Shown here in pieces: positions 12,126 through 61,912 of a stretch of DNA of 62,092 nt. Where the stretch lies: NCBI GenBank assembly GCA_003696765.1, contig RFFX01000040.1, forward strand, positions 1 through 62,092, read 5' to 3'. Source of the DNA: Zetaproteobacteria bacterium (GTDB lineage Bacteria > Pseudomonadota > Zetaproteobacteria > Mariprofundales > J009). The notes beneath the pieces are model-generated. The model was not told the origin of the DNA and made no database searches. It saw only the letters and a list, made by a program, of their open reading frames with translations. The position numbers were made by a program, and so were the translations under genes. How positions within the stretch are numbered: position 1 is the first letter of the stretch; the number at the start of each line of letters is the position of its first letter.

Positions 12126-12169
12126 ACACGTCCACGGACGGACGCGGACGGTTTTTTGCGATTCGATCG
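12126..12169 (+). repeat. FDTGH repeat family, partial copy (degenerate H module)
   Basis: ACGTCCACGGACGGACG...TTTTTTGCGATTCGATCG, 3' of the Lpt permease gene. Confidence 0.6.
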
Positions 12170-12333
12170 TGGGGACCGCCTCTGCAAGAGGGGGGATGAG
12201 GGCGCAGCCGGACCCGGTGGCGTACGCCGGCCCCGATGCCGCCGCGAAGAAGGCCCAGCCCGGATCGTGTTCGGGCGGGAATCGGGAGGGGCGGTGCGCT
12301 TCGGGTGCTCCTACGCCCCCCGCGAAGCGGTCG

Positions 12334-12528
12334 TCAGCCCTGGCACTCCTTGCGGAAGAGGCAGGGATCGACGGCGCAGTTCTTGATCCGACCGAAGCAG
12401 TCGTTGTTTCCCTCGGCACGCTGGATGGCGTGGATCAGGTCGGCCTTGCGCATGGCGTGGGCACCCTTGATGCCCAGCGCCTTGGCCATGGTGATGAGGA
12501 AGGCCTTGGTCACTTTCTTGTTGCTCAC
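12334..12528 (-). CDS. small SAP/Rho_N-like protein with 4-Cys C-terminal tail
   Basis: ORF 12334..12603. GTG 12528 lies 7 nt after GGAG. KKVTKAFLITMAKALGIKGAHAMRKADLIHAIQ forms a helix-extended-helix, followed by NDCFGRIKNCAVDPCLFRKEC. Confidence 0.55.
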   Translation of the reverse strand: MSNKKVTKAFLITMAKALGIKGAHAMRKADLIHAIQRAEGNNDCFGRIKNCAVDPCLFRKECQG

Positions 12529-12687
12529 GGTGAGACTCCGTCGGGGAAGGAGAGGAGATTCCCCCAGGAATGGCAGGGGGTCCGGAGAGGGGCGCCGAAC
12601 CATAGCGGCCGGGGGGAGAAGTGCAAGTCGGCAGGCTGGATGTTCCGTATCGGCGGCCGGTTCTGCGTTGCCGTTCCCGTTCCCCCG

Positions 12688-13344
12688 TTATGCAGCGGTG
12701 CGGCGGGCATTGATCCGGTTGACCAGTGCGAGGATCAACCCCAGCGCGATGAAGGCGCCCGGCGGCAGGATGAACATGATGACCCCGGGGTAGTCGGCGC
12801 CGAGCAGGTTGATGCCGAAGAGGCTCCCTTTGCCGAGCAGCTCCCTGAGCGCGCCCAGGGTGACCAGCGCCCCCGTAAAGCCCAGCCCCATTCCCAAGGC
12901 GTCGATTACCGCGTCGGAGAGGCGGTTCTTGCTGGCGAAGGCCTCGGCGCGGCCGAGGATGGTGCAGTTGACCACGATCAGCGGGATGAAGAGCCCCAGC
13001 ACCAGGTAGGTGTCGTGCATCCAGGCGTTCATCGCCATGCCGGAGACGGTGACGAAGGAGGCGATGATGGTGATGTAGGTCGGGATGCGCACCTCACGCG
13101 GCACGAAGCCGCGGATGAGCGAGACCGCGCTGTTCGATGCGAGCAGCACCGCCAGCGTGATCACCCCCATCCAGAAGCCGTTGGCGGCGGTGGTGGTGAC
13201 GCCGAGCAGCGGGCACATGCCGAGCAGTTGGGCGAAGACGGCGTTGTTGTGCCACAGCCCGTCGAACAGGATCGCCCGCCTGCCTCCGGCGGTGGGCAGG
13301 GGTGTTGCGCTGGCGGCGCCGCCGTGGTGGCCGGGGGAGGGCAT
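12688..13344 (-). CDS. rnfE: Rnf electron-transport complex subunit E (RnfE/NqrD family)
   Basis: C-terminal 218 aa of ORF 12688..14043, starting at ATG 13344. GLWHNNAVFAQLLGMCPLLGVTTT, FIPLIVVNCTILGRAEAFA and PPGAFIALGL. Confidence 0.85.
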   Translation of the reverse strand: MPSPGHHGGAASATPLPTAGGRRAILFDGLWHNNAVFAQLLGMCPLLGVTTTAANGFWMGVITLAVLLASNSAVSLIRGFVPREVRIPTYITIIASFVTVSGMAMNAWMHDTYLVLGLFIPLIVVNCTILGRAEAFASKNRLSDAVIDALGMGLGFTGALVTLGALRELLGKGSLFGINLLGADYPGVIMFILPPGAFIALGLILALVNRINARRTAA

Positions 13345-13349
13345 CGCCG

Positions 13350-13877
13350 CTACAGCGCGTTCAGGTTCTGCCGTGCCACCTGGTAGTCGGGATCGATGCG
13401 CAGCGCCTGCTCCAGTTCGGCACGGGCGCGGTCGCGGTCGTAGGGGCGGTTGCGTTGGTAGTAGGCGACGCCGAGGTCGTTGTGGTAGAGGGCGCTGCCG
13501 GTACAGAGGCGGACGCTGTTCTGCAGCAGGTAGACCTTCCGTTCGATATCGCGTGTCTTGAGCGCGGCGTTGTATTGCCGTTCGGCGGCGGCGCAATCGT
13601 CGAAGCTGCGCGGCGCGGCCTGCGCCGGCGGCCGGGCGTTGCCCTTGCCGATCTGCTTGCCCAGCAGGTAACCGCCCAGGGCGCCGATGATCGCGCCCTG
13701 ACCTGCGCCGCCGCGGCGGTTGACCTGATGGCCGATGACCGCACCGGCACCGGCGCCGATCAGGGCGCCGAGCACGCCGCTGTCGGCCGCCGTCGCCGGC
13801 GCGGGCAGGGAGGGCAGGGCGAAGAGCGCCAGCACGGCGGCGGCGATGCGTGGGAGGATGGGGACAGAATCCGTCAT
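13350..13877 (-). CDS. secreted glycine-zipper plus TPR-like protein
   Basis: 175 aa. Signal-like AAAVLALFALPSLPAPATA, glycine zipper GALIGAGAGAVIG...GAIIGALGGYLLG, and a TPR-like tail (YHNDLGVAYYQRN...ALRIDPDY). Confidence 0.6.
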   Translation of the reverse strand: MTDSVPILPRIAAAVLALFALPSLPAPATAADSGVLGALIGAGAGAVIGHQVNRRGGAGQGAIIGALGGYLLGKQIGKGNARPPAQAAPRSFDDCAAAERQYNAALKTRDIERKVYLLQNSVRLCTGSALYHNDLGVAYYQRNRPYDRDRARAELEQALRIDPDYQVARQNLNAL

Positions 13878-13908
13878 GATCGAGTCGCAAAACGTCCGTC
13901 CATGGAGC
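13878..13908 (-). repeat. FDTGH repeat family, partial copy (half H module)
   Basis: The minus strand reads CTCCATGGACGGACGTTTTGCGACTCGATC, directly followed by the ATG of the glycine-zipper gene. Confidence 0.6.
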
Positions 13909-14133
13909 CTGCAGCATCACGGTGGATCGAGGCGTCTGCTCGACCCCTTCGGATCTGGCGGCCGCGGCTGCGGCCGCAGGCCCGGCACGCTGTACCGCAG
14001 CCTCCTTGCAGCGGCGTGGCCGGACGCAGGGGAATGGTCCCACGGGTCCGTGCCGCTGTCAACCGGATGCCGCCCCTCCGACCGGGGGCGGCGCGCCATT
14101 CTCAGGTCCCTTCGGCCCGGCTAGCATTGGGCG

Positions 14134-15072
14134 GTGGTGATCGACCCCGAAGAGACGGCGCATCTTCCGCCGCCGGGTGTTCCCGGCTGGTGGGCCGCCC
14201 GCAGTTGGCGGCAGCGGCTCAACGTGATGCTGTTCGATTTCACCTGCCGTATCGGGCGGATCGTCAACTACACCATCGGAGTCTTCATCCTCTCGGCGGT
14301 GCTGATCTCGATGACCGACTCGGTGCCCTACTACCACGACCACTACGCCCGGCCGTTGGGGCTGTTCGAGGATCTGGTCACCTTCGTCTTCGCCGTGGAG
14401 TATCTCCTGCGGGTCTACTCCGCCCGGCGCCCCTTCACCTACATCTTCAGCTTCAACGGCATCGTCGATCTCACCGCCGTCCTGCCGCTGCTGATCGGCG
14501 AGGACTCGACGCTGGTGATCCGGCTGCTGCGTGTGGTCCGCCTGATCAAGCTGACCAGCTATCTGCCGGCGCTGACCGCCCTCTTCCGCTCGCTCACCGA
14601 CGTGGTGCATCTGATGCTGGCGGTGCTCTCGGTCATCATCCTGATGTCGCTCTTCGCCGGCAACCTGATCTACATCGTCGAGCCGGAGACCTTCCATACC
14701 GCCTTCGAGGGGGCGTGGTGGAGCCTCGTGACCATGAGCACGGTGGGGTATGGCGATCTCTACCCCACCACGGCGGCGGGGCGTCTGATCGCGGTGGCGG
14801 TGATCCTCTCGGGCATCACCATGTTCGCCATGGCCACGGCGGTGGTCTCCGTCCGGGTCGGGCGCCACCTCTACGAGCAGATCCACTGCCCCGCCTGCAA
14901 CCACAGCGTGGCCGAGGATCACATCTACTGCCCGCATTGCGGCATCAGGCTGGAGATCGGTGATCCGGTCGATGAGAAGCCCGATTTCCATCGACGGGAC
15001 AGAGGGGTTGAGGCGGCCGCCGGTCGGGCGGAGGCTCCGCGGGGGGAGGCAACGCAATCGGATCGGAAATGA
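14134..15072 (+). CDS. voltage-gated-type (6TM) potassium channel with C-terminal zinc ribbon
   Basis: S4-like RLLRVVRLIKLTSY, selectivity filter TVGYGDLYP, and C-terminal CPACN...CPHCG. GTG start. The TGA lies inside repeat module F. Confidence 0.85.
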   Translation: MVIDPEETAHLPPPGVPGWWAARSWRQRLNVMLFDFTCRIGRIVNYTIGVFILSAVLISMTDSVPYYHDHYARPLGLFEDLVTFVFAVEYLLRVYSARRPFTYIFSFNGIVDLTAVLPLLIGEDSTLVIRLLRVVRLIKLTSYLPALTALFRSLTDVVHLMLAVLSVIILMSLFAGNLIYIVEPETFHTAFEGAWWSLVTMSTVGYGDLYPTTAAGRLIAVAVILSGITMFAMATAVVSVRVGRHLYEQIHCPACNHSVAEDHIYCPHCGIRLEIGDPVDEKPDFHRRDRGVEAAAGRAEAPRGEATQSDRK

Positions 15073-15228
15073 CGACTTCGCAAGAAGTCGGCATCCGCGA
15101 CCAGGATGGTCGCGCAAATCCGGAGGTTGCGCATGCAAGCGACGGATTTGTAAGGCGATCGAAGAGCGCGCTCTTCGATCGCCGTCAAGCAAAAAGTCCA
15201 CGGACGGACTTTTTGCGATTCGATCAGG
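15069..15228 (+). repeat. FDTGH repeat family, full copy (reference copy)
   Basis: Modules in order: ATGACGACTTCGCAAGAAGTCGGCAT / CGCGACCAGGATGGTCGCG / CAAATCCGGAGGTTGCGCATGCAAGCGACGGATTTG / GGCGATCGAAGAGCGCGCTCTTCGATCGCC / CAAGCAAAAAGTCCACGGACGGACTTTTTGCGATTCGATC. Confidence 0.9.
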
Positions 15229-15390
15229 AGTGATGGTTTCGCAAGAAAGCATCATCGCGGCCAGGACGGCCGCGCAAATCCGAAGCTTGCGCATGCAAGC
15301 GACGGATTTGTAAGGGGATCGAAGACCGCGCTCTTCGATCCCCGTCAAGCAAAAAGTCCACGGATGGACTTTTTGCGGTTCCATTAGGAG
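15229..15390 (+). repeat. FDTGH repeat family, full copy (head-to-tail with previous)
   Basis: All five modules are present. The copy ends TTAGGAG, 12 nt before the guaB ATG. Confidence 0.9.
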
Positions 15391-15393
15391 TAA

Positions 15394-16875
<1,482 letters not shown>

Positions 16876-23551: not shown

Positions 23552-24517
23552 CTACTGGGGGGCGCGCTCCAGCAGCCGCCGGATGCCGGTGGGAAGGGCG
23601 ACCTCGTCCGGGTGGACCCACCGCCCCGGGGGATCGGGCGGAGCATCGGTGCAGAGGAGATAGAGGTGGAGCCGGCGGTGGGTGAGGCGGTGGAGCAGGT
23701 CGGGGCGGCGATCCGCCGTCGGTGTGATCGGCTCGATCGGCGGTGTCCACATGCCGCCCCAGATCGCATCCGCCGGGCGCCGCACCATCCAGATGCCGCG
23801 CTCGGGATGGCGGTGGATGGAAACGCGCCAGTGCAGATCGCGCACGGCCGCTCCAGCCCGCGCCGGCGCGGGCTGGAGCGGCCGGTCGGCGCCGGCGCAA
23901 ACGGGCCGCAGCGGGCAGGCGCCGCAGGCGGCGGTGCGCGCCCGGCAGAGGGTGGCGCCGAGCTCCATCATCGCCTGGTTCCACTCGGCGGGGTCGGGCG
24001 CGCGCCCGATGGCATGTGAGGCCAGCCGCCACAACGTGCTGTCTGCGGCCGTTGCGGCATCATGCCAGCGGGTCAGCACCCGGCGTACGTTGGCGTCGAG
24101 CACCGGCCGGCGTTGTCCGAAGCAGATCGAGGCGATGGCGCCGGCGGTGGAGCGACCGATGCCGGGCAGGGCGAGGATCTCGGCGAACGCTTCGGGGAAG
24201 CGCCCGTGATGGCGCTGCATGATCTGCCCGGCCGCGGCGTGGAGCAGCCGCGCCCGCCGGTAGTAGCCCAGCCCCTGCCACGCCTTGAGCACCTCCGCCT
24301 CGTCGGCGGCGGCCAGCGTCGGTAGGTCGGGAAACCGCGCCAGCCAGGTATCGAAGCGGGGCAGCACGGTGGCCACCTGGGTCTGCTGCAGCATGACCTC
24401 GGAGATCCAGATGCGGTAGGGGTCGCGGGTGCGGCGCCACGGCAGGTCGCGTCGGTGGCGGCGGTACCACGCCGGCAGCGCCGTCTCCGGATCGGTGTCG
24501 TATTGATCAGAGTGCAA
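23552..24517 (-). CDS. mutY: A/G-specific adenine DNA glycosylase
   Basis: HhH-GPD (LPGIGRSTAGAI) and Fe-S cluster cysteines (CRARTAACGACPLRPVC). The start is ambiguous: either TTG 24517 (5 nt after GGAGG, inside an H repeat module) or GTG 24556 (GTGA overlap with the upstream stop). Confidence 0.88.
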   Translation of the reverse strand: MHSDQYDTDPETALPAWYRRHRRDLPWRRTRDPYRIWISEVMLQQTQVATVLPRFDTWLARFPDLPTLAAADEAEVLKAWQGLGYYRRARLLHAAAGQIMQRHHGRFPEAFAEILALPGIGRSTAGAIASICFGQRRPVLDANVRRVLTRWHDAATAADSTLWRLASHAIGRAPDPAEWNQAMMELGATLCRARTAACGACPLRPVCAGADRPLQPAPARAGAAVRDLHWRVSIHRHPERGIWMVRRPADAIWGGMWTPPIEPITPTADRRPDLLHRLTHRRLHLYLLCTDAPPDPPGRWVHPDEVALPTGIRRLLERAPQ

Positions 24518-24549
24518 AACGTCCCTCCATGGACGTGTTGCGATTCGAA
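24514..24549 (+). repeat. FDTGH repeat family, solo H module (antisense to flanking genes)
   Basis: GCAAAACGTCCCTCCATGGACGTGTTGCGATTCGAA. Confidence 0.75.

Positions 24550-26491: not shown

Positions 26492-26495
<4 letters not shown>
26061..26495 (-). CDS. NusG domain II-containing (DUF1312) protein
   Basis: VRIYHGNRLIARYPYP...IAPEGVRMIHAPCGSQQCVASG...DMIVCLPNRISVLI. The GTG start overlaps the hppA stop (GTGA). Confidence 0.62.
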
Positions 26496-28495
<2,000 letters not shown>

Positions 28496-28504
28496 CTGCT
28501 ACCT

Positions 28505-28590
28505 GATCGCAACAAGTCCGTCCATGGACTTTCCGGCCGCACGGGAATCGAAGAGCGCGGCCTTCACTGTTGAGCGAAGCCCCGATCAGC
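28505..28590 (-). repeat. FDTGH repeat family, degenerate partial copy (H, G, possibly F remnants)
   Basis: GATCGCAACAAGTCCGTCCATGGACTTTCC...GGGAATCGAAGAGCGCGGCCTTC...GAGCGAAGCC. Confidence 0.55.
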
Positions 28591-28639: not shown

Positions 28640-29893
<1,254 letters not shown>

Positions 29894-29921
29894 CGGTCGG
29901 GTTTCCTTTCCTCGGAGTGTT

Positions 29922-30079
29922 GATGGAATCGCAAAAAGTCCGTCCGTGGACTCTTTGGCTGTACGGCGATCGAAGAGCACGCTCTTCGATCCTCTTACAA
30001 ATCAATCACTTGCTTACGCAGGCTCTTGATTTGCGCGGCCGTCCATGGTCGCGATGATGGCTTCTTGCGAAGCCGTCAT
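29922..30079 (-). repeat. FDTGH repeat family, full copy
   Basis: Reverse complement of all five modules. The T outer stem reads CAAATCAA/TTGATTTG. The F end contains the stop of the lipoprotein gene. Confidence 0.88.
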
Positions 30080-30384
30080 TGTTGTTGCATGCGGGTGGCG
30101 CGACGTTGTTGCATGCGGATGGCGCGACGGGCCAGGTTGCGGGCGACACGGGCCTTGGCACGGGCCTCGTCGAAGCGGTGGCCTGCGAGCAGCAGGCTCG
30201 CCTGATGCAGAGCGGCGTCGGCCTTCTTCACCATCCCGGCCGCGGCGCTCTCCGCGGGGGGGTGGAGCCGGTGGGCCGCCTGCAGCGCCGCCCGCGCCTC
30301 GGCCATCATCTGTACCGGCGGCTGGTGTTTGACACAGCCGGCGGCGATCAGCAGGGCGGCGATCAGCAGGGGGTATCGGGCCAT
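30076..30384 (-). CDS. DUF4398-like lipoprotein
   Basis: Lipobox LLIAAGC followed by helical Ala-rich repeats. A C-terminal in-frame 24-nt duplication is present. The stop lies in repeat module F. Confidence 0.6.
   Translation of the reverse strand: MARYPLLIAALLIAAGCVKHQPPVQMMAEARAALQAAHRLHPPAESAAAGMVKKADAALHQASLLLAGHRFDEARAKARVARNLARRAIRMQQRRATRMQQQ
30081..30128. repeat. 24-nt direct tandem duplication (2 units, 1 mismatch) inside the lipoprotein CDS
   Basis: GTTGTTGCATGCGGGTGGCGCGAC / GTTGTTGCATGCGGATGGCGCGAC. It encodes the duplicated ...RMQQRRAT/RMQQ... C-terminus. Confidence 0.9.
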
Positions 30385-39157: not shown

Positions 39158-40078
<921 letters not shown>

Positions 40079-40186: not shown

Positions 40187-40260
40187 CGATCCTGCCGCCT
40201 GTGCTCTTCGATCTCCGTCGAGCAAAAAGTCCACGGACGGACTTTTTGCGATTCGATCAG
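40187..40260 (+). repeat. FDTGH repeat family, partial copy (degenerate G plus H)
   Basis: CGATCC...GCTCTTCGATCT...GAGCAAAAAGTCCACGGACGGACTTTTTGCGATTCGATC. Confidence 0.75.
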
Positions 40261-40262
40261 CA

Positions 40263-40422
40263 ATGACGGCTTCGCAAGAAGCCGGCAGCAGCGGCCAGGA
40301 CGGCCGCGCAAATCCGGAGGTTGCGCATGCAAGCGACGGATTATGTAAGGCGATCGAAAACCGCGTTTTTCGATCGCCTTCAAGCAAAAAGTCCACGGAC
40401 GGACTTTTTGCGATCCCATCAG
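40263..40422 (+). repeat. FDTGH repeat family, full copy
   Basis: All five modules. The G arms read CGATCGAAAACCG/CGTTTTTCGATCG. Confidence 0.9.
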
Positions 40423-40423
40423 C

Positions 40424-40460
40424 AATACGGTCCATGGAGGGACGGTTTGCGATTCGATCG
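40424..40460 (+). repeat. FDTGH repeat family, solo H-like module
   Basis: ATACGGTCCATGGAGGGACGGTTTGCGATTCGATCG, ending 4 nt before the leuD ATG. Confidence 0.65.
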
Positions 40461-40463
40461 AAC

Positions 40464-41111
40464 ATGCAGCCGTTCACCGTTCATGAGGGGTTGGTGGCGC
40501 CGATGGATCGGGCCAATGTCGATACCGACGCCATCATCCCCAAGCAGTTCCTCAAATCGATCCGCCGCAGCGGATACGGCGCCTATCTGTTCGACGAGTG
40601 GCGCTATCTCGATCAGGGCGAGCCGGGGATGGATTGCAGCAAACGGCCGAAGAATCCCGACTTTGTGCTCAATCAGCCGCGCTATCGGGGGGCGACGATC
40701 CTGTTGGCGCGGGAGAACTTCGGCTGCGGTTCGTCGCGCGAGCATGCGCCGTGGGCGCTGCTCGACTACGGCTTCCGCTGCATCATCGCTCCCTCCTTCG
40801 CCGATATCTTCTACGACAACTGCTGCAAGAACGGCATCCTGCCGCTGACCCAGCCGGCGGAGGTGGTCGACCGCCTCTTTGCCGAGTGCGCAGCGCAGGA
40901 GGGCTACCGGCTGCGGGTCGATCTGCCGGCCCAGCGGTTGACCCTCCCCGATGGAACGACCTTTGCCTTCGGGATCGATCCCTTCCGCAAGCGGCGGCTG
41001 GTCGAGGGGCTGGACGACATCGCTCTGACGCTGGAGCACGCCGATGAGATCCGTGCCTTCGAGCGGCGCCACTTCGCTGCCCATCCGTGGCTGGTGGAAG
41101 CCGCCGCTTGA
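40464..41111 (+). CDS. leuD: 3-isopropylmalate dehydratase small subunit
   Basis: ATG 40464. [14 protein letters not shown] and [17 protein letters not shown]. Confidence 0.93.
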
Positions 41112-45382: not shown

Positions 45383-45390
<8 letters not shown>

Positions 45391-46033
45391 TTCCACACCC
45401 ATCCGCATCGCGCTGCCCAAGGGGCGGCTGCTGGGGCAGGTGGTGCCGTTGCTCGAAGCGGCGGGGCTGGCCCCCGACGGAGAGGGGATCCGCAGCCGCA
45501 GGTTGATCCTCCCCGGGCCGGAGGGGTACTGCTTCCTCATCATCCGGGCGGCCGACGTCTGCACCTTCGTCGCCCGCGGAGCCGCCGATCTGGGCATCGT
45601 CGGCCGTGACCTGCTGCTCGAGAGCGACCCCGATCTCCATCAGCCGCTCGATCTGGGGATCGGCCGCTGCCGGCTCTGCGTGGCGGTGCCCGAGCATGGC
45701 GGGGATCCGCTGGCCCGGCCTCCTGGCAGCGTGGTACGTGTGGCGACCAAGTACGACCGGCTGGCAGCCGGCTTCTTCATGCAGCGCGGCCTGCAGGCGG
45801 AGATCATCCACCTCTACGGCTCGATGGAGCTGGCGCCGCTGGTCGGGATGGCCGACTGCATCGTCGATCTGGTCGAGACCGGCTCCACGCTGCGGGCCAA
45901 CGGCCTGGTCGAGCGGGCGACGCTGTTCGAGATCTCCAGCCGGCTGGTGGTCAATCCGGTCAGTGCGGTGCTGCGGCGGGCGGAGATCGAGCCGGTTATC
46001 GACCGTCTGCGCCGATGCGTGGAGCAATGGTGA
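45383..46033 (+). CDS. hisG: ATP phosphoribosyltransferase (short form)
   Basis: 216 aa. IALPKGRL and LVETGSTLRANGL. The TTG start overlaps the murA end. The TGA lies in repeat module F. Confidence 0.93.
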
Positions 46034-46185
46034 CGGCTTCGCAGGAAGCCGTCAGCGCGGCCATGGGTGGTCGCGAAATCCGGAGGCTGCAGAGGCAAGC
46101 GACGGATTTAGTAGGGGGATCGAAGAGCGCGCACTTCGATCCCCGTCAAGCAAAAGTCCACGGGCGGACTCTTTGCGATTCGATC
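46030..46185 (+). repeat. FDTGH repeat family, full copy
   Basis: All five modules. F starts GTGACGG and contains the hisG TGA. Confidence 0.88.
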
Positions 46186-46219
46186 AACGCTGACGGGCAA
46201 CTTTCGTAAGGATAGGCGT

Positions 46220-47551
46220 GTGGCGATGCAGACGAGCTGGAAGATGCGACGACTGGCATGGGGAGAGGCCGACTTCGACGAGCGGCTGCAGGCGTTGCTG
46301 GCCCGTGGGGGCGATAGCGACAGCGGGGCGGAGGTGGAGCGGCAGGTCGGCGACATCATCGCACAGGTGCGGCGAGAGGGCGACGCCGCCCTCTGCCGGC
46401 TGACCGAGCGTTTCGACCGCTGGCCCTGCACGCCCGAGGCGATGGTGATCGATCGCGCGCGGATGGAGCAGGCGTGGAGGCGGATCTCCGGGGAGGATCG
46501 GCAGGCGCTCTCCATGGCCGCCGAGCGGCTGCGTGCCTTCCATGAGCAGCAGGCCGCGCGCGAGCGGTCGTGGAGCTACCGCGACGCGGCGGGCATGGAG
46601 CTGGGCCAGCGGGTGACGCCGCTCGACCGGGTGGGGCTCTATGTGCCGGGGGGGACGGCGGCCTATCCCAGCTCGGTGCTGATGAACGCCATCCCGGCGA
46701 GGGTCGCCGGGGTGGGGGATCTGGTCATGGTGGTGCCTACTCCCGACGGTGTGGTCAACGAGCTGGTGTTGGCCGCCGCCTTCATCGGCGGGGTGGGGCG
46801 CGGTTTCGCCGTCGGCGGGGCGCAGGCGGTGGCTGCGCTCGCCTTCGGTACCGAGTCGGTGCCGGCGGTGGACAAGATCGTCGGCCCGGGCAACCGGTTC
46901 GTCGCCGCCGCCAAGCGGCAGGTCTTCGGCGTCTGTGGTATCGACATGATCGCCGGGCCGTCCGAGATCGTGGTGGTGGCCGATGGCGGTGATCCGTGCT
47001 GGCTGGCGGCCGATCTGCTCTCCCAGGCCGAGCACGACGCCGCAGCGCAGGCCGTTCTGATCAGCGACGACGCCGACCTGCTCGATCGGGTCGAGGCGGA
47101 GATCGCTCGCCAGCTGGCCGCGCTCCCTCGGGCGGAGATCGCCCGCGCCTCGCTGGAGGCGCACGGCGCGCTGATCGCGCTGGAGGATCTGTCGCAGGCG
47201 GCGGAGGTGGTCAACCGCATCGCGCCGGAACACCTGGAACTGGTGCTGGCGCAGCCCGATGCGCTGCTGGCGCGTATCCGCCACGCCGGCGCCGTCTTCA
47301 TCGGACACCATGTGCCCGAGGCGCTGGGGGATTATGTCGCCGGCCCCAACCATGTGCTGCCGACCAACCGTACCGCGCGTTTCTCCTCGCCGCTCGGGGT
47401 GTATGATTTCCAGAAGCGCAGCAGCATCATTCGCGGGAGCGCCGATGCGCTGGCCGCGATCGGGCCGGCGGCGGCCCACATTGCCCACCGTGAGGGGCTG
47501 GATGCCCATGCGCGGACGATCGAACTGCGGCTGGAGCGTCGTGTCCAATGA
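46220..47551 (+). CDS. hisD: histidinol dehydrogenase
   Basis: SQAEHD and GPNHVLPT motifs. GTG 46220 lies 7 nt after AAGGA; ATG 46226 is the alternative start. Confidence 0.95.
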   Translation: MAMQTSWKMRRLAWGEADFDERLQALLARGGDSDSGAEVERQVGDIIAQVRREGDAALCRLTERFDRWPCTPEAMVIDRARMEQAWRRISGEDRQALSMAAERLRAFHEQQAARERSWSYRDAAGMELGQRVTPLDRVGLYVPGGTAAYPSSVLMNAIPARVAGVGDLVMVVPTPDGVVNELVLAAAFIGGVGRGFAVGGAQAVAALAFGTESVPAVDKIVGPGNRFVAAAKRQVFGVCGIDMIAGPSEIVVVADGGDPCWLAADLLSQAEHDAAAQAVLISDDADLLDRVEAEIARQLAALPRAEIARASLEAHGALIALEDLSQAAEVVNRIAPEHLELVLAQPDALLARIRHAGAVFIGHHVPEALGDYVAGPNHVLPTNRTARFSSPLGVYDFQKRSSIIRGSADALAAIGPAAAHIAHREGLDAHARTIELRLERRVQ

Positions 47552-48579
47552 TTCGTAAAGATATCCGGATGCTGGAGCCCTATCGCGTCGAGGATGCCAC
47601 CGGGCTGATCAAGCTCGATGCGATGGAGAATCCCTATCCCATGCCGCGGGCGCTGCACGAGGGGTGGCAGCAGCTGCTCGCCCGCACCGAGGTGCACCGC
47701 TATCCCGACGCCGACATGGCGGGCCTGCGCGCGCAGATCGCCGAGCTCGACGGCGTGGATCCGGCGCAGATCCTGCTCGGCAACGGCTCCGACGAGCTGA
47801 TCCAGATGATCCTGATGGCCGCCGATCCCGGTGCCTGCGCCATTCCCTCCCCCACCTTCTCCATGTACGAGCTGATCTCCCGTTGGCTTCGGCGGCCGGT
47901 GGTCACCGTCGCGCTCGATGCCCATTTCGAGCTGAGCGCGCAGAAGCTGCTGCGCACCAGCGGTCGGGAGAAGGCGGCGGTGATCTTTCTCGCCTGTCCC
48001 AACAACCCCACCGGCAACCTCTGGCCGATGGAGGAGGTGGAGGCGGTGGCGCGCGGCTTCAACGGGCTGGTGGTGATCGACGAGGCCTACCGCCCCTTCA
48101 CCGACCGCACCCATCTGTCGCTGATCGCGCCCAATGTGGTCATCCTGCGCACCTTCTCCAAGATGGGGTGGGCCGGATTGCGGCTGGGCTACGCCATCGG
48201 CGATCCCGACACCATCGCCCAGCTCAACAAGGTGCGGCTGCCCTACAACATCAACGCGCTCACCCAGGCGTCGGCCTCCTTCCTGCTGCGCCACGGCGAG
48301 CTCTTCGCCGCGCAATGCCGGCGCATCGTCGAGGAGCGCGAGCGGGTGGCTGGGATCCTCGAGGGGATCAACGGCATCACCCTCTTCCCCTCGCAGACCA
48401 ACTTCCTGCTCATTCGCGTGGCCGACGCCGAGCGCACCTTCTCCTTCCTCAAGTCGAGCGGGATTCTGGTCCGGAATCTGCACCAGCCCAACGGGCCGCT
48501 CGCCGGTTGCCTGCGGCTGACCATCGGCACGCCGGAAGAGAACGACGCGCTGATCCGGGCGCTGATGCAGGCGGTCTGA
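47548..48579 (+). CDS. hisC: histidinol-phosphate aminotransferase
   Basis: ATGA overlap with hisD. PLP-Lys context [13 protein letters not shown]. Confidence 0.93.
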
Positions 48580-48591
48580 CCGGACGGGGGT

Positions 48592-48750
48592 GTGATGGTT
48601 TCGCGAGAACCCATCATCGCGGCGTCGGCGTGCCGCGTAAAACCGAAGCTTGCGAATGCAAGCGACGGCTTTGGAAGGGAATCAAAGAGCGCGCTCTTCG
48701 ATTCTCGTCAAGCAAAAGGTCCATGGACGGACGTTTTGCGATTCGATCCG
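48592..48750 (+). repeat. FDTGH repeat family, full copy (diverged)
   Basis: All five modules. The F loop is GCGA. The copy ends 4 nt before the hisB ATG. Confidence 0.85.
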
Positions 48751-48752
48751 AG

Positions 48753-49349
48753 ATGATTCGACAATCACGCAGCGCCACGATCGAACGCGCCACCAAAGAG
48801 ACCCGCATCACGCTGTCGCTCGATCTCGATGGCACGGGCAGCAGCAGCATCGACAGCTCGATCCCATTCCTCGACCACATGCTGGAGCAGATCAGCCGCC
48901 ACGGGTTGATCGACCTGACCCTGCAGGCGCGCGGGGATCGTGAGATCGACGACCACCACACGGTCGAGGATATCGGCATCTGCCTCGGCGAGGCGTTGCA
49001 CGATGCGCTGGGCGACAAGACGGGGATCGTTCGTTACGGCCACGCTTTCGTACCGCTGGACGAGGCCCTCTCCCGGGTGGTGCTCGATCTCTCCGGTCGG
49101 CCGGGGCTGCACTACCAGGTGGTGTTTCCCCGTCCCAAGGTGGGGGATTTCGACACCGAGCTGTTCCGCGAGTTCTTCCAGGCGGTGGTCAACCACGGCC
49201 GGTTGACCCTCCATATCGATGCCCTGCGCGGGGAGAACAACCACCACATCATCGAGACCGTCTTCAAGGCCTTCGGCCGGGCGTTGCGCATGGCGGTGGC
49301 ACCCGATCCGCGGCAGCAGGGGATCCCGTCGACCAAGGGGGCGCTGTGA
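48753..49349 (+). CDS. hisB: imidazoleglycerol-phosphate dehydratase
   Basis: ATG 48753. [17 protein letters not shown] and [17 protein letters not shown]. Confidence 0.95.
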
Positions 49350-49390
49350 CCGTGGCGGCGTTCAAGTACACTGGCGAAACGAACGGAGGT

Positions 49391-49551
49391 ATGATGGTTT
49401 CGCAAGCAGCCATCATACGCGACCAGGACGGTCGCGCAAATCCGGAGGTTGCTCTTGCAACCGATGGATTTGTAAGGCAATCGAAGACCGCGCTCTTCGA
49501 TTGCCGCCGAGCAAAAAGTCCATGGACGGACTTTTTGCGGTGTGATCAGGA
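49391..49551 (+). repeat. FDTGH repeat family, full copy
   Basis: All five modules. The G arms read CAATCG/CGATTG. The 3' tail GATCAGGAG supplies an SD-like sequence for the next ORF. Confidence 0.9.
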
Positions 49552-49557
49552 GTGGCG

Positions 49558-49884
49558 ATGAAGGTCAACAATGCGAACCTTGCAGCGCTGAGCAACATCA
49601 CGGTCCAGCAGGAGGTTTCGGCCAACAATGTCGCCAACCTGCTGACCCGGGGCTATCGGGCTGCGCGGGCGCTGCAGCAGGGGGACCGGGTGACGGTCAG
49701 CCCGGAGATGCGCGCCGCGATCCAGCGCAACGAAGCGGCCAGCAGCGCCGCTCCGTCGCCCAGCGATGCCGCGACCGAGCAGGTCCGTATGCGGCGCAAT
49801 GAGGCGGCTTATACCGCCAACCTCAATGCCATCAAGACCCGCGATGCCCTCTACAAGGCGCTGGATGATTTGAACAAGGGGTGA
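49558..49884 (+). CDS. small flagellar basal-body rod-like protein (FlgB/FlgC-type termini)
   Basis: 108 aa. ATG 49558 lies 5 nt after GGAG. N-terminal SANNVANLLTRGY fits the rod signature N-[LIVM]-[SA]-N-x2-T-x-G-[FY] with one mismatch. C-terminal EQVRMRRNEAAYTANLNAIKTRDALYKALDDL resembles the rod C-terminal motif. Confidence 0.55.
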   Translation: MKVNNANLAALSNITVQQEVSANNVANLLTRGYRAARALQQGDRVTVSPEMRAAIQRNEAASSAAPSPSDAATEQVRMRRNEAAYTANLNAIKTRDALYKALDDLNKG

Positions 49885-54918: not shown

Positions 54919-54957
54919 GAGTCGGCCGGAAGGAGAGTCGGCCGGAAGGAGAGAGTC
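54919..54957. repeat. 16-nt tandem repeat (2 perfect units plus a partial unit) between phoU and hemJ
   Basis: GAGTCGGCCGGAAGGA occurs twice, then GAGAGTC, running into the hemJ stop. Confidence 0.85.
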
Positions 54958-55381
54958 AGAAGGGGCGCACCACCACCAACACCACCGCCAGGATCAGCCC
55001 GAGCGTCGGCAGTTCGTTGTAGATGCGGAAGAAGCGCTCGCTGTGGGGCGGTGCGCCCCGGGCGAAGCCGGTCGTCATCCGACCGCAGTGCAGATGGAAG
55101 ACGATCAGCCCCAGCACCACCGCCATCTTGGCGTGGAACCAGCCCGCATCCACCAGCCACGCCCAGTTCATCGACGCCATGGTGGCGCCGCAGATCAGGG
55201 TGATCACCATCGCAGGCCACATGATGAAGCGGTGGAGCCTGCGTTCCATGATGCAGAACTGCTCGTGCAACACCCCTTCGGGGTGGCGGCTGTGGTAGAC
55301 GAAGAGGCGCGGCAGATAGAAGAGGCCGGCGAACCAGGCCACCAGCGCGATGATGTGCAGCGCCTTGATCCAGAGATACAT
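54956..55381 (-). CDS. hemJ: protoporphyrinogen IX oxidase HemJ (UPF0093 family)
   Basis: 141 aa, 4 TM segments. LHIIALVAWFAGLFYLPRLFVYH...FHAKM. Confidence 0.8.
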   Translation of the reverse strand: MYLWIKALHIIALVAWFAGLFYLPRLFVYHSRHPEGVLHEQFCIMERRLHRFIMWPAMVITLICGATMASMNWAWLVDAGWFHAKMAVVLGLIVFHLHCGRMTTGFARGAPPHSERFFRIYNELPTLGLILAVVLVVVRPF

Positions 55382-55384
55382 ATT

Positions 55385-55540
55385 GTTCGACCGCAAAACG
55401 TCCGTCCGTGGACGTTTTGCTTGACGGGGATCGAAGAGCGCGGTCTTCGATCCCCTTACAAATCCGTCGGTTGCATCTGCCACCTCCGGATTTGCGCGGC
55501 CGTCCATGGCCGCGATGCTGGTTTCTTGCGAAGCCAGCAT
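55385..55540 (-). repeat. FDTGH repeat family, full copy
   Basis: Reverse complement of all five modules. H reads AAAACGTCC/GGACGTTTT. Confidence 0.9.
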
Positions 55541-55698
55541 CGATTCGACCGCAAAACGTCCGTCCGTGGACGTTTTGGCTTCACGGGGATCGAAGAGCGC
55601 GGTCTTAGATCCCCTTACAAATCCGTCGGTTGCGTCTGCAACCTCCGGATTCGCGCGGCCGTCCTGGTCGCGATGTCGGCTCCGCAGGCGGCCGTCAT
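55541..55698 (-). repeat. FDTGH repeat family, full copy (head-to-tail with previous)
   Basis: Reverse complement of all five modules, with F degenerate. The F end contains the stop of the CcsA-family gene. Confidence 0.85.
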
Positions 55699-56519
55699 GG
55701 ATGCAGTTCGGCCATGATGAAGCGCGAGCCGAAGTAGGCGAGCAGCATGGTGAGGTAGGTGCCGATCACCAGGTAGCTCGAGGTCTTGTTGCGCCACGAT
55801 CCCCGGCGGTGCGCCAACGCGATGATCAGCAACAGGATCCATGCGAGGAAGGAGAGCAGTACCTTGTGGCTGAGCAGGGCGAAGTGCCCCCATGCCACCC
55901 ACTGCCAGCTCAGGCCGGTGAGGATGCCCGCCCCCAGCAGCCACAGCGCACCGCGTACCTGGGCGAACATGTGCCGTTCGATGTCGGTCAACGGCGGCAT
56001 GGCACGGATGAGCGGATGGATCCGTTTCGCTTTCAGCGCCCGGTCGAGCAGTAGATGCATCACCGCATGGAGCGCCGACAGGGTCGCCACCGCATAGGCG
56101 CTCATCGACAGCGCCAGGTGGCTGGCCTCCAGCCAGGAGTCGGTCTCCAGCCAGCTTCCCCGGTGGCCGGTGGGGAGCAGCGGCGTCAGGATCAGGGCGA
56201 GGCCGGTCACCGGCAGCAGGATCATGCCCAGCCCGTGGATGCCATGGCGCAGCAGCCCGATCAGGTAGATCAACTGCACCAGGAATGAGGCGCTGGCCGC
56301 GGCATCGATCAGGGTGAAACGAATGCCGAGCGGGCTGCTCGGTGCGGCTCCGATCGCCCCGATCAGGGTGAAGAAGAGCGAGATCGAAACACAGGTGGCG
56401 ATCAGCGGCTGCGGCTCTTTGGTCGGCAAGGGACGATCGAGCGCGCGGGCCCAGAGCAGCCATGCGGCGACCAGCGAGACGGCGCCGGCCAGCGGGAAGA
56501 GGATCAGGGTGGCGGACAT
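55695..56519 (-). CDS. cytochrome c assembly (CcsA/YpjD-family) membrane protein
   Basis: 274 aa, polytopic, with a Trp/His-rich C-terminal half (LSWQWVAWGHFALLSHK). The stop lies in repeat module F. Confidence 0.7.
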   Translation of the reverse strand: MSATLILFPLAGAVSLVAAWLLWARALDRPLPTKEPQPLIATCVSISLFFTLIGAIGAAPSSPLGIRFTLIDAAASASFLVQLIYLIGLLRHGIHGLGMILLPVTGLALILTPLLPTGHRGSWLETDSWLEASHLALSMSAYAVATLSALHAVMHLLLDRALKAKRIHPLIRAMPPLTDIERHMFAQVRGALWLLGAGILTGLSWQWVAWGHFALLSHKVLLSFLAWILLLIIALAHRRGSWRNKTSSYLVIGTYLTMLLAYFGSRFIMAELHP

Positions 56520-56557
56520 CGGTCGCGATGATCGCGGATCGCGCAACCGGCATCAAG

Positions 56558-56716
56558 GATGACGGCTTCGCAAGAAGGTGGCATCCGCGGCGTTGGCGTG
56601 CCGCGCAAATCAAGAGCTTGCGAAGCAAGCGATCGATTTGTAGGGCAATCGAAGAGCGCGCTCTTCGATTGCCTTCAAGCAAAACGTCCATGGACGGACG
56701 TTTTGCGATTCGATTG
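56558..56716 (+). repeat. FDTGH repeat family, full copy (antisense to flanking genes)
   Basis: All five modules on the plus strand, between two minus-strand genes. Confidence 0.88.
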
Positions 56717-56762
56717 AGAATACTCCCCTCACAAAAAGAGCATCAGGGATCGTATGGCCGGT

Positions 56763-57695
56763 TCAACGTCCTGCCGACAGCCGGCGCAGTTCGACCACCG
56801 CGCCGAAGAGGGCGAGATCGGCGCGCAGCGTCTGCCGTTCCGCCCGGCGGGGCAGCTCGGCCAGCCGGCGGCAGCCGTCGAGCAGCGCTTCGCCGCGTGC
56901 GAAATCGAGCCTGGAAATCCGCCGGCAGGCGGCCTCGACCGCCAGCTCGACCACCAGTTGCAGTGCCGCCGCGTTCCACTTCCCTCCGCTCAGGCGGCGC
57001 GCCTCGGCGAGGTCACAGCGGGGGAGGTCTTCGAGCAGCCGCTCCCACTGCTGCAACGACCGGCACCACCCCTCATCCCGCAGCAGCGCCACCCGTCCCG
57101 GTCTGCCGCGGGCCAGCCGCAGGGCCAGCGGCAGGGCTGCCTCCGCGATCCCCATGCGCTGCAGCACCTGCCGACACTCCTCTTCGCCGAGGGCGTGGCA
57201 CGGCTGCAGCAGACAGCGGGAACGGATGGTGGCCGGCAACCGGTTCGGTTCGCCACAGACCAGGAGGATCGCCGCCCCCTCCTGCGGCTCTTCCAGCCCC
57301 TTGAGCAGGGCGTTGGCCGCCGACCGGTTCATCGTTTCGGCATCATCGATGATCAGCACCCGTCGGCTGCTCTCATGACCGGTGAGGCTGAGGAAGGCGA
57401 GCGCTTCCCGTACCGCCTCCACCGGAAGGTCGCGCTTGCCCTCCGGGCGCTGCAACAGCCGGAGGTCAGGATGGGTTCCGGCGTGCACCAGTCGACAGCT
57501 GTGGCACGCGCCGCATGGGGGGGCGGCGCCGCGGCAGAGGAAGGCGGAGGCCGCCTCTCGGGCGAGCAACGCCTTGCCGATGCCCGAGGGGCCGTAGAGG
57601 AGCCAGGCGTGGTGGCCTCCTTCCCGCGCACCCAGCCCGTTGCACAGCGTGTCGCGCACCGCCGTGTGGCCGACGATCTCCCACGCTGTCGGCAA
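56763..57695 (-). CDS. holB: DNA polymerase III subunit delta prime
   Basis: LLYGPSGIGK, Zn-module CGACHSCRLVHAGTHPDL, and IIDDAETMN. Confidence 0.85.
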   Translation of the reverse strand: MPTAWEIVGHTAVRDTLCNGLGAREGGHHAWLLYGPSGIGKALLAREAASAFLCRGAAPPCGACHSCRLVHAGTHPDLRLLQRPEGKRDLPVEAVREALAFLSLTGHESSRRVLIIDDAETMNRSAANALLKGLEEPQEGAAILLVCGEPNRLPATIRSRCLLQPCHALGEEECRQVLQRMGIAEAALPLALRLARGRPGRVALLRDEGWCRSLQQWERLLEDLPRCDLAEARRLSGGKWNAAALQLVVELAVEAACRRISRLDFARGEALLDGCRRLAELPRRAERQTLRADLALFGAVVELRRLSAGR

Positions 57696-57698
57696 GGG

Positions 57699-58448
57699 CT
57701 AGTCTCCTGCGATCAGCGGCCGGAGCAGCCGCTCCACCCGTGCCGCCACTTCGTCGATGGTGCCCCCGGCATCGACGCGGCGGATCCGTTCGGGATGGCG
57801 TCGGTGCAGCTCGGCGAACGCACGATGGACCGCCCGGTGGAAGGCGAGCGCCTCCCGGTCGATCCTCCCCTCCCGGTCGATCCTCCCTTCTCCGGCGGCG
57901 CCGCGAGCGGCGATGCGCGCCATCGCCTCTTCCGGCGCCAGGTCGAACCAGAGCGTGCAGCCGGGGGAGATCCCCTGCTCGGCATAGCGCACCAGTGCGG
58001 CGGCCTCCTCGATCCGGCCCAGGCGCCGGGCGGCCAGCTGGTAGGCGAGGGTGGAGTCGCTGTAGCGGTCGCACAGCACCCAGGCGCCCCGCTCGAGCGC
58101 CGGCGCGATGACGGTGGCGACATGCTCGGCCCGGTCGGCGAGGAAGAGCAGCAGCTCACAGGGGGGGGTGGGGTGGAAGGCGTCGTCCAGCAGCAGCCGG
58201 CGGATCTCCCGCCCGACGGGGGATCCGCCCGGTTCGCGGGTGGTGCATACCGGAAGGTCATGGGCGCGCAGCAGCGCCGCCGCCCGGGCCATCTGGGTGC
58301 TCTTGCCGCATCCGTCGCCCCCCTCGAATGTGATGAAGCGGGGATGGCCGCCGCTCAGCAGGATGGCTCCGTGGGCGGGGGGGCGGCTGCCGTCACAGCA
58401 GCTCCAGCAGGCATTCGTCCGGGTTGACGTTGTCGCCCACGGCGACAT
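57699..58448 (-). CDS. tmk: dTMP (thymidylate) kinase
   Basis: P-loop FEGGDGCGKST and CDRYSDST. The start is uncertain: either ATG 58448 (56-nt overlap with pycB) or CTG 58361 (5 nt after GGAG). Confidence 0.85.
   Translation of the reverse strand: MSPWATTSTRTNACWSCCDGSRPPAHGAILLSGGHPRFITFEGGDGCGKSTQMARAAALLRAHDLPVCTTREPGGSPVGREIRRLLLDDAFHPTPPCELLLFLADRAEHVATVIAPALERGAWVLCDRYSDSTLAYQLAARRLGRIEEAAALVRYAEQGISPGCTLWFDLAPEEAMARIAARGAAGEGRIDREGRIDREALAFHRAVHRAFAELHRRHPERIRRVDAGGTIDEVAARVERLLRPLIAGD
57853..57888. repeat. 18-nt in-frame tandem duplication inside tmk
   Basis: TCCCGGTCGATCCTCCCC / TCCCGGTCGATCCTCCCT. It encodes GRIDRE twice. Confidence 0.85.
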
Positions 58449-60249: not shown

Positions 60250-60271
60250 TCCTCCGGCCGTGTGGCTGGGG

Positions 60272-61690
60272 TTACAGTCCGAGATGGGTGGCGACGGCCA
60301 CGGCGACGGCGGCGGCGATGTCCTCGCGGCGTTCGTAGGGCTGATAGTCGAGCAGCTCGGGGTGCTGCTCCATGAAGCCTGTGTCGAAGTCTCCGGCGGC
60401 GAAGGCGTCGGAGGCGACGATGTTGCGGTAGAGCGGCAGGGTGGTCTTCAACCCGCGGATGTCGTACTCCTCCAGTGCACGGAGCGCCCGCCGGACCGTC
60501 TGCCGCCAGTCCCGCCCCCAGACGGTGAGCTTGGCGCACATCGAGTCGTAGTGGGGCGGGATGGTGTAGCCGGCGTAGACACAGCCGTCGACCCGCACTC
60601 CGGGGCCGCCGGCCGAGTGGTAGCGGGTGATCAGCCCGGGATCGGGGAAGAAGTCGTTCTTCGGATCCTCGGCGTTGATGCGGAACTCGATGGCACAGCC
60701 GCGGTAGTCGATCTCCTCCTGGCTGTAGCCCAGCGGTTCGCCGCTGGCGATGCGGATCTGCTCGGAGACGATGTCGATGCCGGTGATCGCCTCGGTGATG
60801 GTGTGCTCCACCTGCAGGCGGGTGTTCATCTCCATGAAGTAGAAGTTGTGGTCACCATCGACCAGAAACTCGACGGTGCCGGCGTTGACGTAGTCGACCG
60901 CCCGGGCGGCGCGCACCGCCACCGCACCCATGGCCGCGCGCTGCTCGTCGCTGAGGAAGTTGGATGGGGCCAGCTCGATCAGCTTCTGGTTGCGTCGCTG
61001 GATGGAGCAGTCGCGGTCGAAGAGGTGGACCACGTTGCCATGGCTGTCGGCGAGCACCTGGAACTCGATGTGGCGCGGGGCGACGATGCACTTCTCCATG
61101 AACAGCTCGTCGCTGCCGAAGGCCGCCTTGGCTTCGCGGCCGGTGATGGCGAAGTTCTCGCGCAGTTGCTCCTCATCGTCGCAGCGGCGGATGCCGCGCC
61201 CGCCACCCCCGGCGGCCGCCTTGAGCATCACCGGGTAGCCCATGGCATCGGCCAGCGCCAGCGCGTGGTCGAGGTCGCGCAGGGCTCCGTCCGATCCGGG
61301 AATGACCGGAATGCCGGCGGCGATCATGGTGGCGCGCGCCCGGGTCTTGTTGCCCATATTGGCGATCGCCTCCGGGCCGGGTCCGATGTAGGTCAGCCCC
61401 GCTTCCTCTACCCGGCGGGCGAACTCGGCGTTCTCCGACAGGAAGCCGTAGCCGGGGTGGACGGCATCGCACCCGGTCTTGACGGCGATGTCGATGATTC
61501 GATGGATGTTGAGGTAGCTCTTGACCGGGTCGGGGCCGATGAGCACCGCCTGGTCGGCCTTCTTGACATGCAGGGCGTGGGTGTCGGCCTCGGAGAAGAT
61601 GGCCACGGTCTCGATGCCCAGCTCCCGGCATGAGCGCTGGATGCGGACGGCGCATTCGCCTCGGTTGGCGATCAGGATGCGGTGGAACAA
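60272..61690 (-). CDS. pycA: pyruvate carboxylase subunit A (biotin carboxylase)
   Basis: TTG 61690 follows GGGAGGAGGA. ILIANRGECAVRI, GYPVMLKAAAGGGGRGI and EMNTRLQVEHTITE. Confidence 0.92.
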   Translation of the reverse strand: MFHRILIANRGECAVRIQRSCRELGIETVAIFSEADTHALHVKKADQAVLIGPDPVKSYLNIHRIIDIAVKTGCDAVHPGYGFLSENAEFARRVEEAGLTYIGPGPEAIANMGNKTRARATMIAAGIPVIPGSDGALRDLDHALALADAMGYPVMLKAAAGGGGRGIRRCDDEEQLRENFAITGREAKAAFGSDELFMEKCIVAPRHIEFQVLADSHGNVVHLFDRDCSIQRRNQKLIELAPSNFLSDEQRAAMGAVAVRAARAVDYVNAGTVEFLVDGDHNFYFMEMNTRLQVEHTITEAITGIDIVSEQIRIASGEPLGYSQEEIDYRGCAIEFRINAEDPKNDFFPDPGLITRYHSAGGPGVRVDGCVYAGYTIPPHYDSMCAKLTVWGRDWRQTVRRALRALEEYDIRGLKTTLPLYRNIVASDAFAAGDFDTGFMEQHPELLDYQPYERREDIAAAVAVAVATHLGL

Positions 61691-61800
61691 TCCTCCTCCC
61701 GGGGTGGAGATTCCTGCCACGGTGGGACGGGCGGTTCGGTGGAGCACCCACGAGGACAGGGTGGGGCATGATACCATGCCCCCGCGCGCCGCTCAATGGT

Positions 61801-61912
61801 GATCAAACCGCAAAACGTCCGTCCGTGGACTTTTTGCTTGACGGCGATCGAAGAACGCGCTCTTCGACCCCCTTACGAATGCACCGATTGCATGCGCAAT
61901 CCCCTGTTTTGT
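61801..61912 (-). repeat. FDTGH repeat family, partial copy (H, G, degenerate T)
   Basis: GATCAAACCGCAAAACGTCCGTCCGTGGACTTTTTGCTTGACGG / CGATCGAAGAACGCGCTCTTCGACC / CCTTACGAATGCACCGATTGCATGCGCAAT. Confidence 0.75.

Follow-up and report, generated by a model that had tools for sequence, protein, structure and literature searches.

A modular family of hairpin repeats, very probably non-autonomous DNA transposons, in Zetaproteobacteria and Desulfobacterota

Repeat copies in the window and their neighbouring genes

Contig RFFX01000040.1 of a Zetaproteobacteria bacterium (GenBank assembly GCA_003696765.1), analysed here over 62,092 nucleotides of its forward strand (the window), carries a family of short repeats in the spacers between its genes, each built from five hairpins, F, D, T, G and H. 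The window has a G+C content of 68.6%, and the closest matches of its GuaB (87-88% identity) are proteins of Mariprofundales metagenome-assembled genomes (MAGs). A profile was built for nhmmer from the ten full copies that a preliminary description had claimed, and was used to search the whole window. It recovered all ten (E = 1e-47 to 1e-55) together with the seven partial copies claimed in the same description, and the repeat scan and the profile search agree on 17 copies in 62 kb. The alignment of the copies confirmed that the module order F-D-T-G-H is identical in every one of them, and the earlier counts of 13 occupied intergenic spacers and about 2 kb were upheld; the repeats thus fill about 3-4% of the window. 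A full copy is about 165 nt long (units of 155-170 nt) and non-coding. The copies located by nhmmer are as follows (ORF, open reading frame; TIR, terminal inverted repeat).

12125-12170, +: degenerate H-only remnant, just 3' of lptG (11052-12119, +)
13874-13931, -: degenerate H-type remnant, 5' of a glycine-zipper/OmpA-like gene (13350-13877, -)
15064-15231, +: full copy, first of a tandem pair (E = 3e-55; element proper 15072-15224), between a K+ channel gene (14134-15072, +) and guaB (15403-16875, +)
15224-15392, +: full copy, second of the tandem pair, with flanks CAGGAGTG (15225-15232) and TAGGAGTA (15385-15392)
24502-24542, strand ambiguous in this palindromic unit: H-only mini element (TIR, ATGGAG loop, TIR), between the mutY start and the tonB end
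28499-28565, -: partial copy (part of G, and H), between icd and a membrane pyrophosphatase gene (26492-28495, -)
29916-30084, -: full copy, sense, between a 102-aa ORF (30076-30384, -) and icd (28640-29980, -)
40201-40264, +: partial copy (3' half of G, and H; E = 1.3e-18, model positions 108-171), first of a three-element cluster 3' of an ABC ATPase gene (39158-40078, +)
40257-40426, +: full copy, with flanks CAGCAATG and CAGCAATA, a target duplication identical at 7/8 positions
40422-40466, +: H-only mini element, immediately 5' of leuD (Aconitase_C domain; start near 40464)
46024-46193, +: full copy in the his operon, between hisG (45383-46033) and hisD (46220-47551), with flanks CAATGGTG and CAACGCTG
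48589-48756, +: full copy in the his operon, between hisC (47548-48579) and hisB (about 48752-49349); D loop without GGA
49386-49554, +: full copy after hisB, between hisB and a 110-aa ORF (49552-49884, +); tail and flank CAGGAGTG just 5' of the ORF start
55378-55544, -: full copy, downstream member of a tandem pair, sense, 5' of a UPF0093/CopD-like gene (54956-55375, -)
55538-55704, -: full copy, upstream member of the tandem pair, adjoining a ccsA-like gene (55695-56546, -)
56553-56722, +: full copy, antisense, between the ccsA-like gene (-) and holB (56763-57695, -)
61794-61924, -: 5'-truncated copy (D-T-G-H; E = 2e-33, model positions 42-172), sense, 5' of a biotin carboxylase gene (60272-61777, -)

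In seven of the eight spacers that hold full copies, the copies lie sense to the flanking genes. The copy at 56553-56722 is present as described previously, with one correction: it is antisense to both of its minus-strand neighbours and is the sole antisense full copy. Three sense copies are found in the his operon (hisG|hisD, hisC|hisB and after hisB), and the cluster at 40201-40466 abuts the leuD start. The upstream TGA stop codon consists of TG from the target and the first A of the element in four spacers, namely at the ends of the K+ channel gene (15070-72), hisG (46031-33), the 102-aa ORF (30078-76) and the ccsA-like gene (55697-95), and the start ATG of hisB lies in the downstream flank of copy 48589-48756, straight after the element tail.

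No transposase, integrase or RAYT-like gene had been noticed in the window, and none emerged here: about 55 ORFs were compared with Pfam or NCBIfam, and each either is a housekeeping gene or lacks a match there. The two small ORFs next to copies, of 110 and 102 aa, have good third-position G+C (GC3) and no match in Pfam or NCBIfam. A WYL/WCX/HTH regulator at the left edge of the window (554-1570, -), beside ppk1 and gyrA, is unrelated to the repeats. The repeat itself does not appear to be a conserved coding sequence; copy 1 reads through uninterrupted from ATG to TGA, but it is the only such copy and indels shift the frames between copies, so this reading was rejected.

Distribution, ends and structure of the element

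The repeats form a dispersed, modular family, as had been proposed, and are not restricted to this one region; many genomes and metagenomes carry the element. A pattern search with hairpin H in species-representative genomes gave 90 stretches, most of them full-length (E = 1e-25 to 1e-53), in four Mariprofundaceae/Zetaproteobacteria MAGs, the isolate genome of Desulfurivibrio dismutans AMeS2 (about 18 sites), two other Desulfurivibrio, Desulfobacteraceae and Desulfatiglandaceae MAGs, and one MAG labelled Gammaproteobacteria. A search of metagenomes with the F pattern gave at least 120 stretches, with 73 full-length copies among the matches listed. Host-specific consensus sequences are 74-81% identical across phyla. 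Copies within one genome are less alike in the window (mean identity 79%) than in MAG S009_29 (88%) or D. dismutans (92%), and the closest pairs reach 99%. Such a pattern is consistent with horizontal spread and later bursts inside each host; the window copies are the oldest among those sampled. In the locus labelled Gammaproteobacteria bacterium J113 (L071, RFJX01000213.1; 56% G+C), a tandem pair shares 92% identity with the window consensus, more than any Mariprofundaceae MAG does; the taxonomic label is odd, or else the element has had an odd history there. A viral contig (L093, IMGVR_UViG_3300048583_000219) contains one weak H-only match at 5558-5599 (E = 7e-5), which is insufficient to indicate carriage by phages, and blastn searches of plasmids gave matches at chance level only.

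Imperfect TIRs, each roughly 19 bp long, bound the element, and their core TCGCAARAAGTC(C) is inverted at both ends. The left end has the sequence A[T/C]GA[C/G]NTCGCAAGAAGTC, and at the right end its complement GGACTTTTTGCGA is followed by a further 6 nt or so. More exactly, the element begins with A[C/T]GAC and its tail stops 7 nt past ...TTTTTGCG. When the left end (ATGAC-TTCGCAAGAAGTC) is compared with the reverse complement of the right end (ATGAAGTCGCAAAAAGTC), about 15 of 18 positions agree in Desulfurivibrio and 12 of 18 in the window consensus; in the mini element of locus L070 the match is 19/19, whereas full copies agree at 12-15 of 18. The 8 nt that precede the element recur at a fixed offset after its tail. 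In 31 of 63 full copies, drawn from the window and the genomes of other taxa, at least seven of these eight positions are identical, and in 17 the duplication is perfect, whereas shuffled pairing of the flanks gives an expectation of 0.9 and a maximum of 6 in 1000 trials. The metagenome set ascertained with F repeats this result more weakly (8 of 51, with 2.25 expected and a maximum of 7 in 1000). The consensus of these target-site duplications (TSDs) is C-A-(T)-N-N-A-T-G, a near-palindrome, as is usual for transposases that make staggered cuts. In four loci (L048, L010, L050 and L068) the F stem has GG or AG in place of the opening TG, and the same change is found in the downstream repeat, so the opening bases of F are derived from the target. 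Hairpin F as delimited in the preliminary description is real, but its opening TG usually belongs to the duplicated target.

Hairpin H alone is the minimal mobile unit: it occurs as a solo element of 44-46 nt, in which a 6-nt loop separates a 19-bp repeat from its inverted counterpart, with an 8-bp duplication of its own (L070, with 19/19 matching ends, L005, L023, L009, L082 and L026). Relatives with the same ends and other contents include F+D+H forms of about 95 nt and a form with other internal hairpins in which the ends are kept (L006, L048, L020 and L053), and the metagenomes hold several unrelated cargoes of about 165 nt between the same ends. At least three such further types share the F left end and a '...GGACTTTTT[AG]CGA....TCA' right end and have an unrelated interior (L099, L149, L178, L116 and L164; L107, L142, L156 and L168; L153, L194 and L204). 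Because a shared pair of ends encloses unrelated interiors, the ends define a wider superfamily.

Between close relatives, the presence or absence of the element differs at orthologous sites, and in both directions. Loci L091 and L092 keep the gene order K+ channel, guaB, guaA, and their spacers before guaB are empty and only 80 and 27 nt long, compared with 330 nt in the window, where two copies are present. In L092 the empty site reads ...TTTTAGGAGTTCCCTTGTAATG, and the window junctions read CAGGAGTG and TAGGAGTA; this comparison indicates that the ribosome-binding (Shine-Dalgarno) region of guaB was duplicated on insertion. In the syntenic locus L026 the ccsA-holB spacer, which holds copy 56553-56722 in the window, is likewise empty (34 nt). 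Conversely, L046 and L091 have full copies at places where nothing, or just a remnant, is found in the window; in L091 a full copy on the plus strand occupies the spacer that matches the window remnant 13874-13931. The syntenic locus L046 also has an F+D fragment after its lptG, at the place of the window remnant 12125-12170.

The five-hairpin structure is real and is backed by compensatory base changes. Across the 63 full copies, 96% of the pair cells of the five hairpins form standard pairs, changes on both sides are found in 25 of 47 pairs, and none of 500 shuffles reached the observed values; with slid partners, pairing falls to about 40%. One copy folds at -87.8 kcal/mol (z = -9.3). Helix H is almost invariant, but it was the bait of the search, so this is uninformative. 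An asymmetry of G-U over A-C pairs, considered as a sign of selection at the RNA level, was dropped, for it is about 149:39 by cells but about 29:20 by positions and is dominated by inherited subfamily states. In three metagenome loci (L105 134-296, L151 380-539 and L186 11528-11685) the loop of hairpin F is flipped, TTGC standing for GCAA on the same stem, which resembles an inversion of the loop of a palindrome.

The orientation seen in the window recurs elsewhere. In the metagenome set, copies between co-directional genes are sense in 25 cases and antisense in 7 (p = 0.002), and the downstream gene is on the same strand as the copy in 40 cases against 14; in Desulfurivibrio about 12 of 14 are sense. 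A scan of the copies found no enrichment of promoter- or terminator-like sites. In one metagenome locus (L187, from about 1234, +), the ORF of a probable membrane protein starts with MTTSQEV, encoded by an F-hairpin sequence (ATGACGACTTCGCAAGAAGTC), so a remnant of the element may serve there as a gene start.

Transposition and alternative explanations

The family very probably consists of non-autonomous DNA transposons of a well-known class, the miniature inverted-repeat transposable elements (MITEs); this assignment follows from the TIRs, the 8-bp TSDs and the empty orthologous sites. The copies are short, non-coding and dispersed, have TIRs and a duplication of fixed length, and vary in presence and absence. 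The preliminary description could not assign the repeat to a known family; no catalogued family matched it here either, but its class can be assigned. A DDE-type transposase encoded elsewhere would bind the terminal repeats and make cuts staggered by 8 bp; among the insertion-sequence families with duplications of this length are IS256, ISL3, IS66, IS6, IS1595 and IS1. A preference for CATNNATG-like, ATG/CAT-rich targets, together with the loss of insertions within genes, would leave the survivors at gene boundaries, where insertion could be tolerated in two ways: the leading A would rebuild a TGA stop codon after ...TG, and the downstream copy of the target would preserve the Shine-Dalgarno sequence or start codon of the next gene. 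The 165-nt form carries the internal hairpins D, T and G as a kind of cargo, kept folded by compensatory mutation. Sense copies may be read through in operon transcripts as a compact array of hairpins lacking a strong terminator, whereas antisense copies would set the strong 10-11-bp F stem against the start of the next gene and would be removed more often by selection; such faster loss of antisense copies would account for the sense bias of about 3:1. For the host, the element would mainly be a tolerated selfish insertion, with possible side effects on mRNA stability or translation, as in other bacterial MITEs.

Several points weigh against this interpretation. Neither the window, nor the 93 genome loci and 120 metagenome loci (213 loci, about 1.5 Mb), nor plasmids yielded an autonomous partner, that is, an element that has the same ends and encodes a transposase, and for this reason the family of the transposase and its mode of cutting are deduced from the signature of TIRs and TSDs alone. 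The flanking repeats are degenerate in half of the copies. The two ends are not plain mirror images, F being self-palindromic with its loop inverted in some copies, and transposition alone does not account for the long-term conservation of the internal hairpins. Finally, the sense bias is not universal, since the Mariprofundaceae MAGs, with crude gene calls, show an orientation of about 50:50. In MAG S009_29 (WFMN01...), whose loci have this ratio, the copies are up to 99% identical and may be too recent for selection.

Among the candidates for a partner, the only one detected from paired TIR cores 1-3 kb apart, of 1.36 kb in L006, proved to be two variant copies flanking a RadC-like gene, and the ORFs beside solo ends in L046 encode fructosamine kinase and LptG. 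An all-against-all BLASTP comparison for repeated ORFs in the 93 genome and 120 metagenome loci returned housekeeping genes only. ORFs of about 400 aa beside copies in both phyla, suspected of being a transposase, are class I/II aminotransferases (L003 3877-5118, L056 5395-6624, L004 3727-4926 and L080 4918-6141, with hisC at 47548-48579 in the window). Such an adjacency exists in Desulfurivibrio and in Mariprofundaceae, the L003 and L056 proteins being 49% identical, and is probably a coincidence.

A very unlikely alternative is that the hairpins are primarily a functional RNA module, in which the sense array, transcribed together with the adjacent genes, binds or sponges proteins of the CsrA/RsmA type or controls translation, and transposition only spreads the module. 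In the subfamily of Zetaproteobacteria and Desulfurivibrio, both D and H have C-A-N-G-G-A-N-G hexaloops, which we take to be the CsrA/RsmE hairpin consensus CANGGANG; the orientation of the two loops relative to each other is direct and not inverted, and T is joined to G by a UAAGGA linker. The alignment to the Rfam RsmW model spans D-T-G-H from end to end and has GGA loops at D and H (31.9 bits, E = 5e-4 in a small search space), and both the sense bias and the position of copies 10-30 nt 5' of Shine-Dalgarno sequences and start codons are in keeping with such a role. However, the RsmW score is well under the gathering score of 52, and at least a quarter of the copies are antisense. The GGA of the D loop is lost in two of the ten full copies of the window, and the 73 full copies ascertained with F have ATTGAG, ATTGGG or CGGGTG as their D loop. 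Their H loop is AYGRAT, and none of those scored fits the form of GTCC, a 6-nt loop and GGAC with a GGA loop; the loop of H is just what separates the two TIRs. A general CsrA role thus appears unlikely, the likeness in the GGA loops being confined to one subfamily, that ascertained with H. The gene csrA is present in at least some Zetaproteobacteria (PMC8250860), but it has been reported as specific to the stalk-forming ones (PMC8250860), which we count against this explanation. No csrA was matched by tblastn in the sequence searched, a result that is uninformative. If the sense hairpin array were an RNA regulatory cassette spread by transposition, it could wire his, guaB, leuD and icd into a CsrA-type regulon or titrate the protein, and the element would be a mobile source of regulatory sites and not just junk DNA; we regard this as very unlikely. 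As to the loops themselves, CC-AYGGAY-GG is identical in D and H, in direct orientation, in two phyla (window 15064-15232; alignment), and is replaced in the sister subfamily.

Two further explanations do without a MITE. A domesticated element of the REP/BIME kind, kept by the host as an mRNA stabiliser, a processing site or a site for nucleoid proteins and spread by recombination or a RAYT-type enzyme, would suit the modular mosaic with its solo hairpins and tandem arrays, the very stable hairpins retained by compensatory change across phyla, the copies inside operons and the lack of a transposase near the copies. To our knowledge, though, REP/BIME elements lack TSDs and TIRs, and here 8-bp duplications at a fixed offset accompany terminal inverted repeats. 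There is also no RAYT-like gene in the window, the element comes and goes at orthologous sites in both directions, and copies up to 99% identical within a genome indicate recent bursts, so that we hold this origin to be very unlikely. That the repeats serve in transcription, as intrinsic terminators, attenuators or promoters, and recur because they are needed between genes, is extremely unlikely. Their intergenic position, the U run in the H stem and weak terminator-like matches on the antisense strands of T and H would agree with this, but no promoter-like sites were found, terminator-like sites number 9 against 5.1 ± 2.6 expected, and the copies contain no strong terminator on the sense strand. 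Moreover, the his operon is interrupted by three sense copies and is not split into units, and the same 165 nt are found with target duplications in different phyla.

Comparison with known repeat families

In short, this is an apparently undescribed and widespread family of MITEs, and not a new type of system. As stated in the preliminary description, it matches no catalogued family: an Rfam scan at gathering level of the whole window and 13 related loci gave nothing except a tRNA, and a scan by E-value gave only RsmW (RF02809, clan CL00106), below threshold. No published description was found in the literature, in searches that included the literal TIR strings. The family adds a group of MITEs to lineages that have been little studied genetically, the marine iron oxidisers and the sulfur-cycling Desulfobacterota, and its conservation across phyla marks horizontal exchange between these host groups. 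With copies in core operons, and start and stop codons in or beside the element, it will affect gene calling; the repeats will fragment metagenome assemblies and may influence the expression of operons. The shared ends with swappable hairpin cargo, the 44-nt minimal form and the stop-restoring insertion make up a tidy model of how MITEs diversify and are tolerated, and the partner transposase, once found, would offer a genetic handle in the host organisms.

The closest counterparts are other bacterial MITEs, such as Correia (CREE) of Neisseria, RUP of Streptococcus pneumoniae, Nezha of cyanobacteria and ERIC/IRU of enterobacteria. These are likewise non-coding elements of 100-200 nt with TIRs and TSDs, exist in many intergenic copies, are co-transcribed with their neighbours, have strong secondary structure and vary in their insertions between strains, but they have no sequence similarity to the present element. 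Correia and RUP duplicate TA, and Correia has a 26-bp TIR; the present element, by contrast, duplicates 8 bp at CA(T)NNATG and has a TIR different in sequence from that of Correia. It differs from these MITEs also in that its ends are separate hairpins (F and H), three more internal hairpins covary, a TIR-only form of 44-46 nt also moves, and its hosts span Zetaproteobacteria and Desulfobacterota. BIMEs (mosaics of REPs, which are palindromes of 20-40 nt linked to RAYT enzymes, i.e., Y1 transposases) and the pneumococcal BOX are comparable as mosaics of a few hairpin modules in fixed order, with partial and tandem forms and sites within operons; again there is no sequence similarity, and we know of no TIR and TSD signature in REP/BIME or BOX elements. 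RsmW (RF02809) has in common with one subfamily only a row of four hairpins with A(N)GGA loops, and unlike the Rsm/Csr sponge RNAs, which are stand-alone genes with a promoter and a terminator, the present element is mobile DNA. The PATEs derived from IS200/IS605 resemble it in having unlike left and right hairpins and small non-coding derivatives. As far as we know, however, IS200/IS605-derived elements insert without target duplication, beside a fixed tetra- or pentanucleotide, whereas the duplications found here are 8 bp long and variable in sequence. The 8-bp duplications and the end sequences thus exclude REP/BIME, Correia and IS200/605-derived elements.

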